Source: Candidatus Woesebacteria bacterium (lineage in GTDB: Bacteria > Patescibacteriota > Microgenomatia > UBA1400 > MFAQ01). Taken from it: a stretch of 64,000 nucleotides of DNA. A program made the translations under genes and the position numbers. Location: assembly GCA_035389185.1 (NCBI GenBank), contig DAOORK010000001.1, forward strand, positions 65,006 to 129,005. Reading direction: 5' to 3'. The notes beneath the pieces are model-generated. The model saw nothing but the letters and a program-made list of their open reading frames with translations, had not been told where the DNA came from and did not search any database. This document shows, in pieces, positions 23,555-28,437 of this stretch. Position 1 is the stretch's first letter. Every line of letters starts with the position of its first letter.

Positions 23555-23622
23555 GCTGAAGGAAATGATAGTGAGATTTTAGTGATATGTCAAGCCGTAA
23601 ATTGTTTGGTAGAATTGGTTAT

Positions 23623-24147
23623 ATGTCAGGTCACTCAAAATGGTCCACCATTAAACATCAAAAAGCGATTGAAGACAACAAGCGTGGTGCCGTGTTTACC
23701 AAAATTGCAAAAAAGATCCATATAGCGGTTAAAAAGGGTGGTTCGGGTGACGTTAATGTGAACCCTTTCTTAAGAGAATGCATTGAGGAGGCTCGGCAGG
23801 TTAATATGCCCACCGAAAATATAAAGAGAGCAATAGATAAGGCTTCGGGTGTTGGAGGAGCTGATGTGACAGAAGAGGTGGTATATGAGGCATATAGTAC
23901 CGAGGGCGTGGGAATATTAATTACGGCAGTTACGGACAACCGTAACCGAACAGCATCTGAAATTAATTCAGTATTAAATAAGCACAGTGCAAAGTTGGGT
24001 GGTCCGGGTTCAGTTTCTTATATGAAGTCGATTTCACCAGTACCAATGATTAGCTTGGGTGAGGAACAAAAACTAAAAGTTGAGGAATTACTTGAAGCAT
24101 TGTCCGATCTTGACGATACGGTTGATGTTTGGTCAAACTTAGATTAA
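23623..24147 (+). CDS. YebC/PmpR-family DNA-binding regulator (short form)
   Basis: MSGHSKWSTIKHQKAIEDNKRGAVFTKIAKKI is the canonical YebC N-terminus. Start chosen at Met 23623. Confidence 0.75.
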   Translation: MSGHSKWSTIKHQKAIEDNKRGAVFTKIAKKIHIAVKKGGSGDVNVNPFLRECIEEARQVNMPTENIKRAIDKASGVGGADVTEEVVYEAYSTEGVGILITAVTDNRNRTASEINSVLNKHSAKLGGPGSVSYMKSISPVPMISLGEEQKLKVEELLEALSDLDDTVDVWSNLD

Positions 24148-24975: not shown

Positions 24976-26072
24976 ATACAGAAATACGTATTAAGTATTA
25001 TGTATTAAGTATTATGTATGGGAGAAGATAGGTATTAATTATTTCATTACGTAAGAAAAAAATTCGATGGCTGGTCAAAAAGGGGAGAGACCCTATAATA
25101 TAACACCCTATAATAAATATCCTATAACTAACATCCTATAATACTTTTCACAAAACAGCGAAGTTTTCACGAAATTTAGCAGACATGTGGATAACTTGCT
25201 AGGTGAGTGGGTTTGATATAGTTGGGGAAAGAATCAATGTAATTGAATTATGACTGTCGGGAGGTAGAGGTAAAACAATGATTATTTAATAATATATTTA
25301 ATTACACTAAATAATTTGATGACGGATATCTTTGAGAGAAGTGAAAGTGTTATTCTTCTGCACTTCCCTGTTTATCAGAACTATGCCCTAGGGAAGAATG
25401 CTTTATGATACGTCGCACAATAATACTTTTGCGACGTATTCCCAAATGTTGTGCACGAAACGTAACTGATTCGCCTTCTTAATATATTTGTATAAAATCC
25501 CGAAAACTTTTCGGTTTATGCTCCCCTTTGTTCATTTGTACTTGATTATTTGCTGTTTGTGCCTAGCTAGGCTCATTTTAGGTTTAACCATATAAAAACC
25601 CGAAAACCTGAGGCTAAAGTGGCATGATTAACTACTCACAAAAAGTTCCAGAAGCCGTTTTAGGGGCATTCTACGACCTCGGTTTTTAGGACTATTTTAG
25701 GTCTGTTTGGTAGTCTCTTTAATTAAGTAAAGAGACTAAAATGTTGTCTGTCTATTCTTGAATGAGTTCGATAAATCAAATTGATGTATTGAATTGAGAT
25801 TAATTTATCTATGGTAAAGAAAATATTACTTTATTTATTTCTCTAAAATATTTTTACTGGTTTTTAAATGAATTTTTATTTTTTTTGTAAATAATTTTTT
25901 TTATGATTTATTACCGCAAAGAATCTCTAGTTTTTGATTGTGGATAACTTTAGGATAACGTTTATTAAAAATTCTTTTCGGTCTCCCCTATTTATTACTC
26001 CCCTACTTTTCATGTTGTGAAAAAAATCTGATGTTTGCTAATTATGTCGCACAATATTTGCTATGATGAATT
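24976..26072. other. 1.1 kb AT-rich ORF-free region with DnaA boxes, tandem CCTATAAT repeats and multiple perfect hairpins (candidate origin or att/iteron region)
   Basis: No ORF of 60 aa or longer. TGTGGATAA at 25186-25194 and 25939-25947. CCTATAA(T/C) x4 at 25092-25142 with a 14-15 nt period. Hairpins at 25408-25439 and 25711-25738. Very AT-rich stretch at 25840-25915. Confidence 0.4.
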
Positions 26073-27020
26073 GTGGCTAAGAAAAAACCAGAAGACCTGA
26101 CTCTAAGAAGATTGATTCGTAGGTATTTAAGTTTTATTGAGGTGGAAAAAAACTATAGTAAGTTCACTATTCGGAACTACTCCCACTATCTTAAGATGTT
26201 TAGTGATTGGTTTGAGAAACATTATGAGCAAGAATATATTGAGAAGCTGACTGATGACATGGTACGTAGATACAGATTATTTTTAACCCACTTTGAAGAT
26301 GTCCACGGCAAGCGACTCTCCCCTACTACACAAAGTTATTATGTGATTGCCTTGCGAGCATTTCTGAAGTATTGTGCTCGAAAAGGCATAAAAACACTTT
26401 CACCGGAAAAAGTGGATTTACCAAAAAGCGAAAACCACAATATAAAGTTTTTGGAAAGAGAACAGGTTGAGAGACTGCTGATGGCCCCAGATACATCGAC
26501 GATGTCTGGGTTACGAGATAGAACTATTTTGGAAGTGTTATTTTCTACAGGTCTTCGTGTTTCTGAGTTAGCGAAACTTGATATAGATAAAATTGATCTT
26601 AAAGCTCGTGAGTTTGGTATTATCGGAAAAGGTCGTCGGGCACGGGTTGTATTTCTTACTGATAGAGCTGCCGGCTGGTTGGATAAATGGCTTTCTACCA
26701 GATCGGATCCCTTTAGAGCTTTGTGGATTAGGATACCAAAAAACGGAGAGTGGGATCCGGCTATGGGAGGTGAAAAAGCTCGCTTGTCTATTCGTGGAGT
26801 TCAAAGAATTGTGGAGAGATACAGAAGAGCTGCTGGTATATCTATGAGTGTAAGCCCTCATACTCTTAGACACTCGTTTGCTACAACCTTACTTCAGCAA
26901 GGTGCGGACTTGAGAAGTGTTCAAGAAATGCTGGGACATAAGAATGTGGCGACAACCCAGATATATACTCATGTGACGAATCCTCAACTAAAACAGATTC
27001 ACGATAAATATCTGAAATAA
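26073..27020 (+). CDS. Tyrosine site-specific recombinase, XerC/XerD-like
   Basis: C-terminal catalytic box HTLRHSFATTLLQQGADLRSVQEMLGHKNVATTQIYTHV. Core-binding N-terminal domain. GTG start. Confidence 0.85.
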   Translation: MAKKKPEDLTLRRLIRRYLSFIEVEKNYSKFTIRNYSHYLKMFSDWFEKHYEQEYIEKLTDDMVRRYRLFLTHFEDVHGKRLSPTTQSYYVIALRAFLKYCARKGIKTLSPEKVDLPKSENHNIKFLEREQVERLLMAPDTSTMSGLRDRTILEVLFSTGLRVSELAKLDIDKIDLKAREFGIIGKGRRARVVFLTDRAAGWLDKWLSTRSDPFRALWIRIPKNGEWDPAMGGEKARLSIRGVQRIVERYRRAAGISMSVSPHTLRHSFATTLLQQGADLRSVQEMLGHKNVATTQIYTHVTNPQLKQIHDKYLK

Positions 27021-27024
27021 AAAA

Positions 27025-27041
27025 AGCCCGCTATTGCGGGC
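27025..27041 (+). terminator. Rho-independent terminator after the recombinase gene
   Basis: Hairpin agcccgc-tatt-gcgggct followed by a T-rich tract. Confidence 0.55.
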
Positions 27042-27306
27042 TAAGGGTTTTGTATTCCCAGATGATGGTCATACAATTAACTGACGGACGGTGATTCCCA
27101 ACAGCTGGTGTTTGGTGAATTTGATGGCTGATTATCCTTTTGTTTGGGTTTTCATTGGCCCATCGATTTATACAGTGGGCAAGAAGAATAAAATTGTCTT
27201 CTACCCCACCTGACTTACCGCCATCTTTGGTAAGTTTTATCAGAACTAGAAACCCATTTCCTATATACTCGATTTCGTCTTCATGGTTTTTTGCTTTTGG
27301 AGACAA
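27031..27306 (-). CDS. Hypothetical small protein (TTG start)
   Basis: GGGAGG lies 7 nt upstream of the TTG start codon. 91 aa. No motif. Confidence 0.4.
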   Translation of the reverse strand: MSPKAKNHEDEIEYIGNGFLVLIKLTKDGGKSGGVEDNFILLAHCINRWANENPNKRIISHQIHQTPAVGNHRPSVNCMTIIWEYKTLSPQ

Positions 27307-27428
27307 CTTCGACCTCCCGTGTTCGAATTTTATGGTTCTTGCTATTATACTATATATAATATAGGATAGTCAAGGATTGACGATGTGATATAATATAAGT
27401 CTAAACAGCATTTTAACAAGGAGGCCTC

Positions 27429-27914
27429 GTGCAAATTACTGGAAAGAATTTTGGAACTATAAGGCCAGGTGAAGAGATTAAAGTTTCTGAGGCAAACGGC
27501 AGTACCATAAAGGGAATTGTTGCCTGTCGCAATGTTTTAGAAAATTCTTTGATCATGGCAGGCGGATTGGCAATTATTTCAAGTTTGGCTGTGGAAAGAA
27601 CCGGTAAGAGCTTTTCTGAGTTTTCTGTTTTTCCTCAGTTTTATTCTTATCTGGTACAAAATAAAATGCTTGTTACCAGGATGAACGAGATTCGTGTTGG
27701 TGATTGCATTTTAGTGTCGAGTGATGGGTTCAAGACGGTACGGGTGTTAACGATAGCTGTCTATGACCCAGATCGAGATATCGCTTTTGATACAGGTGGC
27801 ATGCCGATCGACATCAACAAAATGAAGATTGCTAAGACTGGTTTTCAAGAAGACACAGCGATGATTTTGATGAAGGGCAACCATTTATTATGCGATTGTG
27901 TAGTTTCCGAATAA
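27429..27914 (+). CDS. Hypothetical protein
   Basis: GTG start with AAGGAGG 7 nt upstream. Extended -10 promoter TGaTATAAT at ~27388-27396. Terminator hairpin at 27921-27937. Confidence 0.5.
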   Translation: MQITGKNFGTIRPGEEIKVSEANGSTIKGIVACRNVLENSLIMAGGLAIISSLAVERTGKSFSEFSVFPQFYSYLVQNKMLVTRMNEIRVGDCILVSSDGFKTVRVLTIAVYDPDRDIAFDTGGMPIDINKMKIAKTGFQEDTAMILMKGNHLLCDCVVSE

Positions 27915-27955
27915 TTTTAGACCCGGCTAAGGCCGGGTATTTTTGTGCAAAAAAA

Positions 27956-27975
27956 AGGCTCGCTTACGCGAGCCT
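27956..27975 (-). terminator. Terminator hairpin for minus gene 27964-28437 (convergent with the 27921-27937 plus-strand terminator)
   Basis: Hairpin aggctcgc-ttac-gcgagcct. On the minus strand it is followed by a T-run. Confidence 0.55.
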
Positions 27976-28437
27976 AAGGCTATTTCTTTCTCCAGTACCT
28001 TCGGGGCGCCACTCGGAGAGGTCTTCACCGTTGATAAAGGCTTTCTCAATTTCGCCAATCTCAATTTCGTTGAGCGAATCAAAATAGTTTTCCCACCAGG
28101 TGTACCACAAGTGATACTCTTTTGTGTATGTAAGAGTAGTCTCTGCTTTATTAAATCGGTAGGGGTCCAAGATATGAAGGCGACTAAGGTCGCTTGCTAC
28201 GACATCTTTTTGGGCAGTACCCTTTGAGATGTTCTCTAACAAAGAAGATTTGAGAGCACCATCCTTGACGGTTTCTAGTTTACATTTTGCAAGAATGATT
28301 GCCTGGGTGAGTTTTTGCAGACATAAAAATATCTCAATTTCCGTATTAGGGAAATAGTTTGTGGTAAGGACAAGATTAATTTGCACGATTCCTCCTTCTG
28401 GAATGTACGATTGAAAAGAACAACTTGGATTATACAA
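27964..28437 (-). CDS. Hypothetical protein
   Basis: 157-aa ORF upstream of gyrA. No motif. Confidence 0.45.
   Translation of the reverse strand: MYNPSCSFQSYIPEGGIVQINLVLTTNYFPNTEIEIFLCLQKLTQAIILAKCKLETVKDGALKSSLLENISKGTAQKDVVASDLSRLHILDPYRFNKAETTLTYTKEYHLWYTWWENYFDSLNEIEIGEIEKAFINGEDLSEWRPEGTGERNSLRLA

Follow-up and report, generated by a model that had tools for sequence, protein, structure and literature searches.

In single-recombinase Xer systems, including the difSL-xerS module of streptococci and lactococci, the XerH/difH system and the archaeal XerA/dif system, the dimer-resolution site is a near-palindrome composed of two inverted arms around a 6-8-bp centre and lies upstream of the recombinase gene, and autoregulation was proposed for XerS (PMC1914069, PMC2958812). 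In the unidirectionally replicating chromids of Pseudoalteromonas, which are plasmid-derived replicons with RepA and a tus gene, GC skew is monotonic and dif2, a canonical XerCD site, lies 4-27 kb from ori2 instead of opposite it; unidirectionality was shown there by read depth (PMC7858055). The oriC of E. coli combines AT-rich 13-mer repeats next to DnaA box R1 with weaker boxes, whereas the DnaA-regulatory loci DARS and datA carry a small cluster of about three DnaA boxes in a fixed arrangement away from dnaA, in cores of about 50-100 bp (DARS) or about 1 kb (datA), and are not known to carry AT-rich unwinding-like tracts or recombinase sites. Mobile replicons also carry recombinase core sites near their packaging or replication regions to circularise or resolve multimers, as in loxP near pac of phage P1, which encodes its own Cre, and the Xer-dependent cer/psi sites of plasmids. 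Closed genomes of Collierbacteria, Beckwithbacteria and Chazhemtobacterium (order UBA1400) have a monotonic cumulative skew, with one G-rich strand all the way round; the authors proposed an adjacent origin and terminus or unidirectional theta replication, but did not locate them (PMC7143001). Here, we analysed a 64,000-nucleotide stretch (the window) from a Candidatus Collierbacteria genome (CPR, order UBA1400), in which a 1.1-kb gene-free region combines DnaA boxes, AT-rich tracts and a dif-like palindrome beside a xer gene. We consider it the best candidate for this unlocated joint start and end point of replication.

Composition and motifs of the gene-free region

An earlier note, made from the sequence alone, had described the region at 24976-26072 as AT-rich and free of ORFs, with DnaA boxes, tandem repeats, hairpins and an unwinding-like tract, and these observations were confirmed almost in full. 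No ORF longer than 41 aa lies in the region, and its GC content is 31% against about 41% in the flanks. The perfect DnaA box TGTGGATAA occurs twice, in both cases extended to the same 12-mer TGTGGATAACTT, whereas the weaker TTAGGATAA lies 2 nt to the left of where the note had placed it. Inverted-repeat analysis resolved the hairpin at 25408-25439, ATACGTCGCACAA / TTTTGCGACGTAT, into 13-nt arms, 92% complementary, separated by 6 nt, and a direct repeat, TATAAAAWCCCGAAAAC, was located at 25491 and 25591. The note had listed the first of the two hairpins only as such, without its recombinase core-site architecture, and had not noticed the relaxed DnaA boxes TTTTCAC(A/G) and TGTGAAAAA or the copy of the palindrome arm in the xer promoter. 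The features are collected in Table 1.

Table 1. Features of the gene-free region and the adjacent recombinase gene, in window coordinates.
Position	Strand	Feature	Supporting observations
25082..25089	+	GGGGAGAG box marking the left edge of the conserved element; inverted partner TCTCCCC at 25982-25989	Inverted repeat of 12 nt, 92% complementary, 893 nt apart; present 316-460 nt upstream of the palindrome in most lineages
25092..25143	+	Four tandem AT-rich 14-15-mers, each carrying CCTATAA(T/C) (25092, 25107, 25121, 25135), abutting the first relaxed DnaA box; candidate unwinding element or protein-binding array	Tandem Repeats Finder: period 14, 3.6 copies; conserved as 3-4 copies in Collierbacteria and as the palindrome CCTATAATTATAGG in deeper lineages
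25145..25171	+	Two relaxed DnaA boxes, TTTTCACA (25145-25152) and TTTTCACG (25164-25171), matching positions 2-9 of TTWTNCACA and pointing in the same direction	Pairs 19-23 bp apart in almost every lineage; the 8-mer is 5.7-fold enriched over the flanks
25186..25194	-	Perfect DnaA box (TTATCCACA on the minus strand)	Inside the invariant block ATGTGGATAACTTGCTAGGTGAGTGGGTTTGATATAGTTG
25410..25437	.	dif-like core site ACGTCGCACAA, TAATAC, TTTTGCGACGT: two 11-bp inverted arms (10 of 11 symmetric) around a 6-bp AT-rich centre	Exact match in at least 119 metagenome contigs in conserved synteny
25492..25607	+	Two copies of ATAAWCCCGAAAAC, 100 nt apart; the first forms a weak terminator-like hairpin at 25500-25514	Conserved within Collierbacteria
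25637..25675	+	Family-level invariant block CACAAAAAGTTCCAGAAGCCGTTTTAGGGGCATT	96% identical even in the most distant Collierbacteria locus (L019)
25711..25738	.	Near-perfect hairpin, 14-nt arms, 93% complementary	Some relatives (loci L019, L130, L085) have a G+C-rich terminator-like hairpin at the same position
25776..25935	.	AT-rich tract, 80-86% A+T	Composition but not sequence conserved in relatives, as in an unwinding element; degenerate 22-nt tandem repeat
25939..25958	-	Second perfect DnaA box (25939-25947) and a weak box 11 bp further on (25950-25958), directly right of the AT-rich tract, the same geometry as the E. coli DUE and R1 box	Conserved in the close Collierbacteria clade only
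25982..26024	.	Right-edge motifs: CTCCCCTA twice (25983 and 25998) and TTTTCATGTTGTGAAAAA, which contains the relaxed DnaA box TGTGAAAAA (26016-26024)	These motifs stay with the element when xer is elsewhere
26043..26072	+	Putative xer promoter/operator: copy of the palindrome arm (TATGTCGCACAATA, 26043-26056) and an extended -10 (TGCTATGAT, 26059-26067), 5 nt before the GTG start at 26073; xer start predicted to be leaderless	The half-site GTCGCACAAT lies next to -35/-10-like hexamers upstream of xer in nearly all lineages; retained where xer is separated from the element
26073..27020	+	Xer-family tyrosine recombinase (315 aa), proposed partner of the palindrome	Pfam; NCBIfam XerC/XerD/XerA below the equivalog cut-offs; best PDB match XerD; intein in three lineages

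Subsequently, to assess whether the boxes could have arisen by chance, we counted them in this contig and in related loci. Only three perfect DnaA boxes occur in 82 kb of this contig, two of which are in the region, where base composition predicts about 0.012 in 1.1 kb, and no other DnaA-box cluster was found in the 82 kb. Across 48 related loci, perfect boxes reached 0.54/kb in this intergenic region against 0.008/kb in 354 kb of flanks, an approximately 64-fold enrichment, with all 43 in one orientation; two relaxed boxes about 22 bp apart accompany the perfect box. In contrast, boxes with one mismatch to the strict consensus were not enriched (0.35 against 0.34/kb), and the cluster is small, comprising about 3-5 boxes. 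Inspection by eye of the sequence between 25900 and 25939, and of its consensus in relatives, revealed no run of TAG/CTA-type trinucleotides that would represent a DnaA-trio.

The minimum of cumulative GC skew had been put forward beforehand as the decisive test for an origin. The skew is positive on both sides of the region, GC3 skew on the plus strand is +0.2 to +0.4 for genes of both orientations on both sides and likewise in related loci, and no skew switch was observed at the element in any lineage. We initially considered this uniformity as proof that neither an origin nor a terminus is located here; however, closed genomes of this order show no sign change anywhere (PMC7143001), and a missing sign change therefore cannot refute an origin. 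CP011212 (family PJMF01) has normal skew. Searches by tblastn with an approximate B. subtilis DnaA query, for which the positive control worked on Firmicute loci, found no dnaA in the window, in the 82-kb extension or in the flanks of any related locus, and no dnaN lies within 82 kb here or within the flanks of any related locus. Other replication genes surround the locus, with dnaX-ybaB-recR, rpsF-ssb-rpsR and dnaB upstream and gyrA, gyrB and holB downstream.

Conservation of the element and its linkage to xer

The element is about 70% identical at the nucleotide level over about 1 kb among Collierbacteria. The synteny TPR-yebC-DUF5656-[element]-xer holds in 101 of 119 metagenome contigs, including loci in which DUF5656 is about 30% and Xer about 50% identical. 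Deep-lineage loci were too divergent for a global MAFFT alignment to be of use and were instead compared by motif anchoring, which showed that motif order is shuffled between lineages. The recombinase is 80-88% identical across Collierbacteria, as conserved as GyrA (79-88%), and keeps its position, whereas only the three small ORFs between xer and gyrA (27031-28437) are variable. The recombinase gene starts 636 bp downstream of the palindrome and is adjacent in 64 of 119 contigs with enough flank.

The palindrome occurs once per locus in 137 loci and once in the 64-kb window. A comparison with an approximate E. coli dif sequence gave identity at 13 of 28 positions, similar to the 14 of 28 reported for archaeal dif (PMC2958812). 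The constancy of the 6-bp centre among chromosomal hits is partly imposed by our search pattern. Furthermore, the same arms with other 6-bp spacers, of the TATRYA type, occur in 98 viral contigs, against about 3-4 expected; these sites are mostly intergenic and have no recombinase of their own nearby, and no viral contig carries the chromosomal spacer. In 13 of the 98 the palindrome also sits beside DnaA boxes, and in one of them (L206) two boxes 22 bp apart lie 17 and 39 bp from it. In phages, the palindrome lies upstream of terL in 12 of 13 directly comparable cases.

In the closed 1.09-Mb Collierbacteria contig the element sits at 0.509 of the length and xer is 250 kb away; if that record starts at a dnaA-linked origin, the locus would instead be a classical terminus. 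In the clade where xer has moved away, the element keeps its DnaA boxes and AT-rich tract, and xer keeps its half-site.

Interpretation of the locus

Our preferred reading, to which we assign a probability of about 0.45, is that the region is an ancient, vertically inherited chromosome-maintenance locus of Collierbacteria and related ultra-small bacteria, with two functions. In this view, the 28-bp palindrome is the recombination (dif-like) site of the neighbouring single Xer recombinase, which would also bind the arm copy in its own promoter and so control its own level, and the perfect and relaxed DnaA boxes, together with the AT-rich 14-mer array and the AT-rich tract, would form a DnaA-dependent replication origin. 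With one G-rich strand all the way round, origin and terminus would lie side by side; replication would start at this locus, run in one direction (left to right in the window, towards xer and gyrA) and end here, where Xer would resolve dimers on the spot. Our analysis demonstrates the conservation, the architecture, the motif enrichment, the linkage to xer and the absence of island and RNA signatures, whereas binding and recombination by Xer, DnaA binding, unwinding, origin firing and unidirectionality are inferred from sequence alone. The replication genes around the locus and the DnaA boxes beside the palindrome in phage contigs also favour this reading. The absence of dnaA linkage and of a DnaA-trio visible by eye, the small number of boxes, the lack of enrichment of one-mismatch boxes, the match to E. 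coli dif at only 13 of 28 positions, the position of the element in the closed 1.09-Mb contig and its separation from xer there, and, in deep lineages, the position of the palindrome between the boxes and the AT-rich repeats, which is odd for an origin, weigh against this reading. The interpretation offered by the earlier note was only partly supported: its oriC reading remains possible, though not for the reasons given there, whereas its island, attP/attL and theta-replicon readings were refuted and the dif-like core tied to xer was missed.

Among the alternatives, a dif/Xer module alone is less likely but is the main rival; here the palindrome would be the dimer-resolution site, the surrounding motifs, including the DnaA boxes, would be accessory or regulatory sequences tying xer expression or recombination to the replication cycle, like those of cer/psi, and the origin would be elsewhere. 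It shares all the dif-type evidence and is favoured by the typical occurrence of only one perfect box per locus, the lack of excess one-mismatch boxes, the absence of dnaA nearby and the position at 50.9% of the closed contig, where a terminus would be if that record starts at the origin. Nevertheless, without a skew switch a classical terminus position is not supported either, although skew is uninformative in this lineage, with monotonic skew the terminus must be next to the origin anyway (PMC7143001), and the retention of the boxes where xer has moved away indicates that they are not simply xer regulators. A DnaA-regulatory or transcription-control hub, acting like DARS/datA or repressing neighbouring promoters, with the palindrome as the operator of an unidentified dimeric DNA-binding protein that also controls xer and phage late (terminase) operons, is unlikely. 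It is consistent with the small, fixed arrangement of three boxes (two forward, one reverse), the half-site at -35 or in the spacer of xer promoters and the position upstream of terL, but arms of 11-13 bp around a 6-bp AT-rich centre that varies between replicons are the hallmark of tyrosine-recombinase core sites rather than typical operators, about 1 kb of conserved DNA with AT-rich tracts would have no reason, and no candidate regulator gene travels with the element, YebC here being a short TACO1-family protein.

A large structured non-coding RNA of about 600-950 nt, with the palindrome as a hairpin with a conserved loop, is very unlikely. It was suggested by islands of extreme conservation separated by variable stretches, by G-rich and C-rich boxes that could pair (GGGGAGAG with CTCCCC), by a few compensatory-looking changes and by G+C-rich terminator hairpins at the right edge in some relatives. 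However, Rfam searches at the gathering threshold and at E<=10 of the window and 12 loci returned only tRNAs, with no Rfam hit in the window or in 10 related loci supporting an RNA gene; ARAGORN found no tmRNA; RNAalifold on 25 sequences found only 33 pairs in 837 columns, with a covariation term of -0.72; and a duplex-energy test on 91 non-redundant flanks, on both strands, showed that pairing between the pyrimidine-rich and purine-rich flanks of the palindrome is no better than in shuffles (z = -0.05), the helices seen by eye being explained by this composition. A promoter scan gave no excess over shuffles, and shuffled motif order is tolerated by binding sites but not by RNA helices. An integrated small replicon or island between yebC and gyrA, with iterons or arm-type sites and its own integrase, draws on the variable segment between xer and gyrA and on extra DNA between the element and xer in three related loci (L009, L017 and L019), but is refuted by the synteny: the element and xer are at the same place in all close relatives and in deep lineages, Xer is as conserved as GyrA and carries an intein in three lineages, and we found no rep gene or Rep domain, no flanking repeats, no empty site and no second att-like copy in 137 loci. 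The lack of a second site in 137 loci and the absence of the chromosomal spacer from viral contigs also argue against IMEX-type integration. Resemblances of TTTTCACG to a parS half-site and of the palindrome loop to the rolling-circle nonanucleotide NANTATTAC are not supported by any ParB or Rep context.

A bolder and unlikely possibility is that the sole chromosome of Collierbacteria and related UBA1400 lineages fires from this locus in one direction only, from a captured origin of phage or plasmid type comprising DnaA boxes plus a Xer-type resolution site, the same module seen next to terminase genes in uncultured phages. It would have replaced the ancestral dnaA-linked bidirectional oriC, which would explain the monotonic GC skew of the whole order.

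Comparison with described systems

That origin and terminus are neighbours in these genomes, or that a main bacterial chromosome replicates in one direction only, has been implied since 2020, but the point has not been located; the locus provides a concrete, sequence-defined candidate, with DnaA boxes, AT-rich tracts and a dif-like site within 1 kb, conserved across the clade. It also defines a new putative Xer target sequence for a large part of the candidate phyla radiation, and the same arms in uncultured phages offer a handle for linking phages to CPR hosts. Compared with the viral and plasmid sites, the viral contigs likewise carry the arms upstream of terL, sometimes beside DnaA boxes, but in contrast to P1 they show no recombinase near the site and would depend on a host enzyme. 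DARS and datA share the small fixed box cluster away from dnaA, but are not known to have the AT-rich tracts or the recombinase-type site. E. coli-type oriC shares AT-rich short tandem repeats directly abutting DnaA boxes, a perfect TGTGGATAA directly right of an AT-rich tract and a mix of strong and relaxed boxes, whereas the present locus has fewer boxes, no dnaA linkage, no skew minimum (not expected in this lineage) and a recombination-type palindrome inside the region. The adjacency of site and recombinase gene mirrors the difSL-xerS module (PMC1914069); however, the recombinase here is closer to XerC/XerD/XerA than to XerS, the site sequence is unrelated to difSL, and the full site is 0.4-2.7 kb from xer with a separate half-site in the promoter, is not at a skew switch and is embedded in a DnaA-box and AT-rich context. 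In the Pseudoalteromonas chromids the dimer-resolution site lies next to the origin of a replicon with monotonic skew (PMC7858055), as is proposed here, whereas in the present case the replicon would be the sole chromosome, with DnaA boxes and a non-canonical palindromic site within about 250-500 bp of them.

Integrity and genomic context of the non-coding element

The window lies in contig JAKQJP010000175.1 (538 kb; assembly GCA_029561095.1), and its GyrA relatives place it in Candidatus Collierbacteria, within the Microgenomates group of the candidate phyla radiation. We first examined whether the sequence features listed in the earlier note were present, and found that they all were. The region contained no ORF above 41 aa, and its GC content was 31% against about 41% in the flanks. 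Two perfect DnaA boxes (TGTGGATAA), four CCTATAA(T/C) units spaced 14-15 nt apart, two hairpins, a direct repeat and an AT-rich tract were confirmed, and only the position given for the weak box TTAGGATAA was off by 2 nt. Of three perfect DnaA boxes in 82 kb of this contig, two were located here. The note's description of the sequence was thus accurate, whereas its interpretation was supported only in part, as an integrated island could be rejected while an origin remained possible.

Seventeen Collierbacteria genomes carried a Xer-family recombinase 80-88% identical to that in the window, comparable to the 79-88% identity of GyrA in the same genomes. Where yebC and DUF5656 were on the same contig, DUF5656 was separated from xer by a gap of about 1.0-1.2 kb, longer where DNA was inserted, that was about 70% identical in nucleotides over about 1 kb. 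In contrast, the stretch between xer and gyrA was hypervariable among Collierbacteria: its three small ORFs, which had no family match, were absent in the related locus L007, where the slot was empty, and were replaced elsewhere by up to 3 kb of other DNA. In three lineages (loci L004, L040 and L090), xer was interrupted in frame by an insertion of about 415 aa, which starts with Cys, ends with His-Asn followed by Ser and carries LAGLIDADG-like motifs; this is an intein, placed right after the catalytic HxLRH motif. Inteins typically sit in essential housekeeping genes. Moreover, neither a rep gene among the neighbours nor, in 137 loci, a second att-like copy was found.

To assess deeper conservation, we searched metagenomes with an exact 22-base pattern from the first hairpin and obtained at least 119 contigs. 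In 101 of these, homologues of the window's neighbours were recognisable in the same order (TPR protein, yebC, DUF5656, element, xer, often gyrA), even where DUF5656 was about 30%, YebC about 45%, Xer about 50% and GyrA about 55% identical. The non-coding element is therefore far better conserved than the genes around it. G+C-rich terminator-like hairpins (CCCCGC...GCGGGG or CCCCGCC...GGCGGGG) appeared in some relatives, either at the right border of the element (L004, L009, L017 and L046) or in place of the AT-rich hairpin of the window (L019, L130 and L085).

Coordinates of features in the window and in related loci
Feature	Location	Strand	Remarks
YebC/TACO1-family gene	window 23587-24147		Only 186 aa; matches the N-terminal domain and just the first third of the second/third-domain model; short form conserved in relatives
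Perfect 14-bp tandem duplication	window 24988-25019		GTATTAAGTATTAT, 2.3 copies, right after the DUF5656 stop codon; an independent short-read assembly (L002) breaks here
Shared 11-mer	window 25138-25148 and 25420-25430		ATAATACTTTT; junction of the last CCTATAAT unit with the first relaxed DnaA box, and centre plus right arm of the palindrome; relatives have G instead of C at the first place, so may be coincidence
Perfect DnaA boxes	window 25186 and 25939		TGTGGATAA
Family-level conserved blocks	window 25361-25370, 25492-25607 and 25637-25675
AT-rich hairpin	window 25711-25738		Replaced by a G+C-rich hairpin in some relatives
Palindrome arm copy and extended -10 of xer	window 26043-26067
Extended -10 and xer start	window 26059-26075		TGCTATGAT ends 5 nt before the GTG start codon; no Shine-Dalgarno sequence visible; xer mRNA may be leaderless
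Three small ORFs	window 27031-28437		Between xer and gyrA
Intein-interrupted xer	L004:13970-15216	minus	Also in L040 and L090
Element and xer-gyrA-gyrB in the closed Collierbacteria genome	L109 (Ga0208373_1000003), about 554.7 kb of 1,089,561 bp; L015 (MFAS01000001), 795-818 kb		Element almost exactly at mid-contig; xer-gyrA-gyrB about 250 kb away

A recombinase-type palindrome beside xer and in viral contigs

The first hairpin corresponds to ACGTCGCACAA|TAATAC|TTTTGCGACGT, for which a repeat finder reported 13-nt arms, 92% complementary, with 6 nt between them, an architecture shared with dif, difSL and lox-type sites. The palindrome occurred once per locus in 137 loci and once in the window. 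Its arm, GTCGCACAAT, recurred just upstream of xer in nearly every lineage, where it abuts a TTGACA-like -35, lies in the promoter spacer or, in Collierbacteria, lies upstream of an extended -10. In the Collierbacteria clade in which xer-gyrA has moved away from the element, and in which the right side of the element is a rearrangement breakpoint, xer retained this 40-bp promoter with the half-site while the element retained its palindrome. The recombinase scored as XerC/XerD/XerA-like below the equivalog cut-offs, and its best solved relative was XerD.

Subsequently, we searched for the palindrome in IMG/VR. The chromosomal version was absent, whereas the pattern GTCGCACAA-N6-TTKTGCGAC occurred in 98 viral contigs (L155-L252), against about 3-4 expected by our calculation. 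The outer two bases were palindromic as well, giving 11-bp arms, and the centres were mostly TATGTA, TATACA, TCTACA, CATATA and TGTATA. Of the 98 sites, 70 were intergenic, and 48 had a large terminase gene within 3 kb as judged by single-linkage clustering; in 12 of 13 directly comparable cases the site was upstream of terL. This terminase was only about 25% identical to that of any cultured phage, and no recombinase family was among the commonly associated proteins. Thirteen of the 98 sites had a perfect DnaA box within 700 bp, about ten times the chance expectation, and in viral contig L206 two boxes 22 bp apart lay 17 and 39 bp from the palindrome. The site sometimes fell inside long repeat-rich non-coding regions with DnaA boxes, for example in L206, L196, L198 and L202. 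The 98 viral contigs may be CPR phages. The palindrome is thus a self-contained recognition site, as inferred from sequence, that mobile replicons also use; their differing centres would keep them from recombining with the chromosome, which makes sense for a recombinase site and less sense for an operator.

DnaA boxes, RNA structure and GC skew

In 48 loci with a complete DUF5656-xer intergenic region, perfect DnaA boxes numbered 43 in 79 kb, all in the same orientation, whereas the 354 kb of flanks held 3. Boxes with one mismatch were not enriched. TTTTCAC(A/G) matches positions 2-9 of the relaxed consensus TTWTNCACA, and two such boxes, 19-23 bp apart and pointing opposite to the perfect box, were found in almost every lineage. 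The order of the modules, namely GGGGAGAG, CCTATAAT(TATAGG), the box pair, TGATATAGTT twice and the perfect box, differed between lineages, as one expects of protein-binding DNA and not of an RNA. In the window, the four AT-rich 14-mers abut the first box, and the second perfect box lies directly right of the 160-bp AT-rich tract.

Readings of the element as a structured RNA failed. Rfam searches returned no match to the element, and RNAalifold on 25 sequences predicted 33 pairs in 837 columns with almost no covariation. Furthermore, the apparent helix between the pyrimidine-rich stretch upstream and the purine-rich stretch downstream of the palindrome was no stronger than in composition-preserving shuffles.

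Plus-strand GC skew was positive throughout the window, and GC3 skew was +0.2 to +0.4 for genes of both orientations on both sides of the element, as also in related loci. Taken alone, this would appear to exclude both an origin and a terminus, and the earlier note had named a skew minimum elsewhere as part of what would refute an origin. However, Kadnikov et al. (PMC7143001) showed that several closed genomes have a near-linear cumulative skew over the entire chromosome, namely Ca. Chazhemtobacterium, Ca. Collierbacteria RIFOXYD2_FULL_45_13 (MFAS01000001, our locus L015 and probably L109) and Ca. Beckwithbacteria, and proposed that origin and terminus are adjacent or that replication is unidirectional, without locating either. 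In such genomes every locus looks like the one here, so this criterion is void.

A candidate origin-plus-dif locus and its closest parallels

A lineage that needs origin and terminus side by side has, as far as we could see, exactly one deeply conserved non-coding locus that joins DnaA boxes, AT-rich tracts and a dif-like site. Replication genes surround it: replication and recombination genes are concentrated upstream, with dnaX-ybaB-recR, rpsF-ssb-rpsR and dnaB (window 1-24000 plus L254, the 9 kb upstream of the window), and xer, gyrA-ppa-gyrB and holB lie downstream. We therefore favour, tentatively and with a probability of about 0.45, a combined origin-plus-dif locus, in which forks would leave towards xer, because the plus strand is the G-rich strand, and return from the DUF5656 side. 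The conservation, the architecture, the box enrichment and the linkage to xer are shown by the sequence comparisons, while binding by Xer and DnaA, recombination, origin firing and unidirectional replication are inferred from them. The parts of this reading differ in strength: that the element is not an island is close to certain and that it is not a structured RNA is likely, whereas a role as the Xer target is somewhat more probable than not and origin function is no firmer than the reading as a whole.

Several findings argue against this reading. dnaA is not nearby, the box cluster is small, and in deep lineages the palindrome lies between the boxes and the AT-rich repeats. In the closed 1.09-Mb contig the element lies at 50.9% of the length; if that record begins at a dnaA-linked origin, this would point to a classical terminus, although the monotonic skew would then be left unexplained. 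Several family-level conserved blocks also have no explanation.

Among known systems, the parallel with the difSL-xerS module is close, as difSL was found as a conserved sequence in front of xerS and autoregulation was suggested (PMC1914069). The placement of the AT-rich 14-mers and of the AT-rich tract directly beside DnaA boxes recalls the E. coli DUE and R1 box, and the replication genes surrounding the locus are origin-proximal in Firmicutes. The known precedent for the monotonic skew pattern is the unidirectionally replicating Pseudoalteromonas chromids, which have dif 4-27 kb from the origin (PMC7858055).
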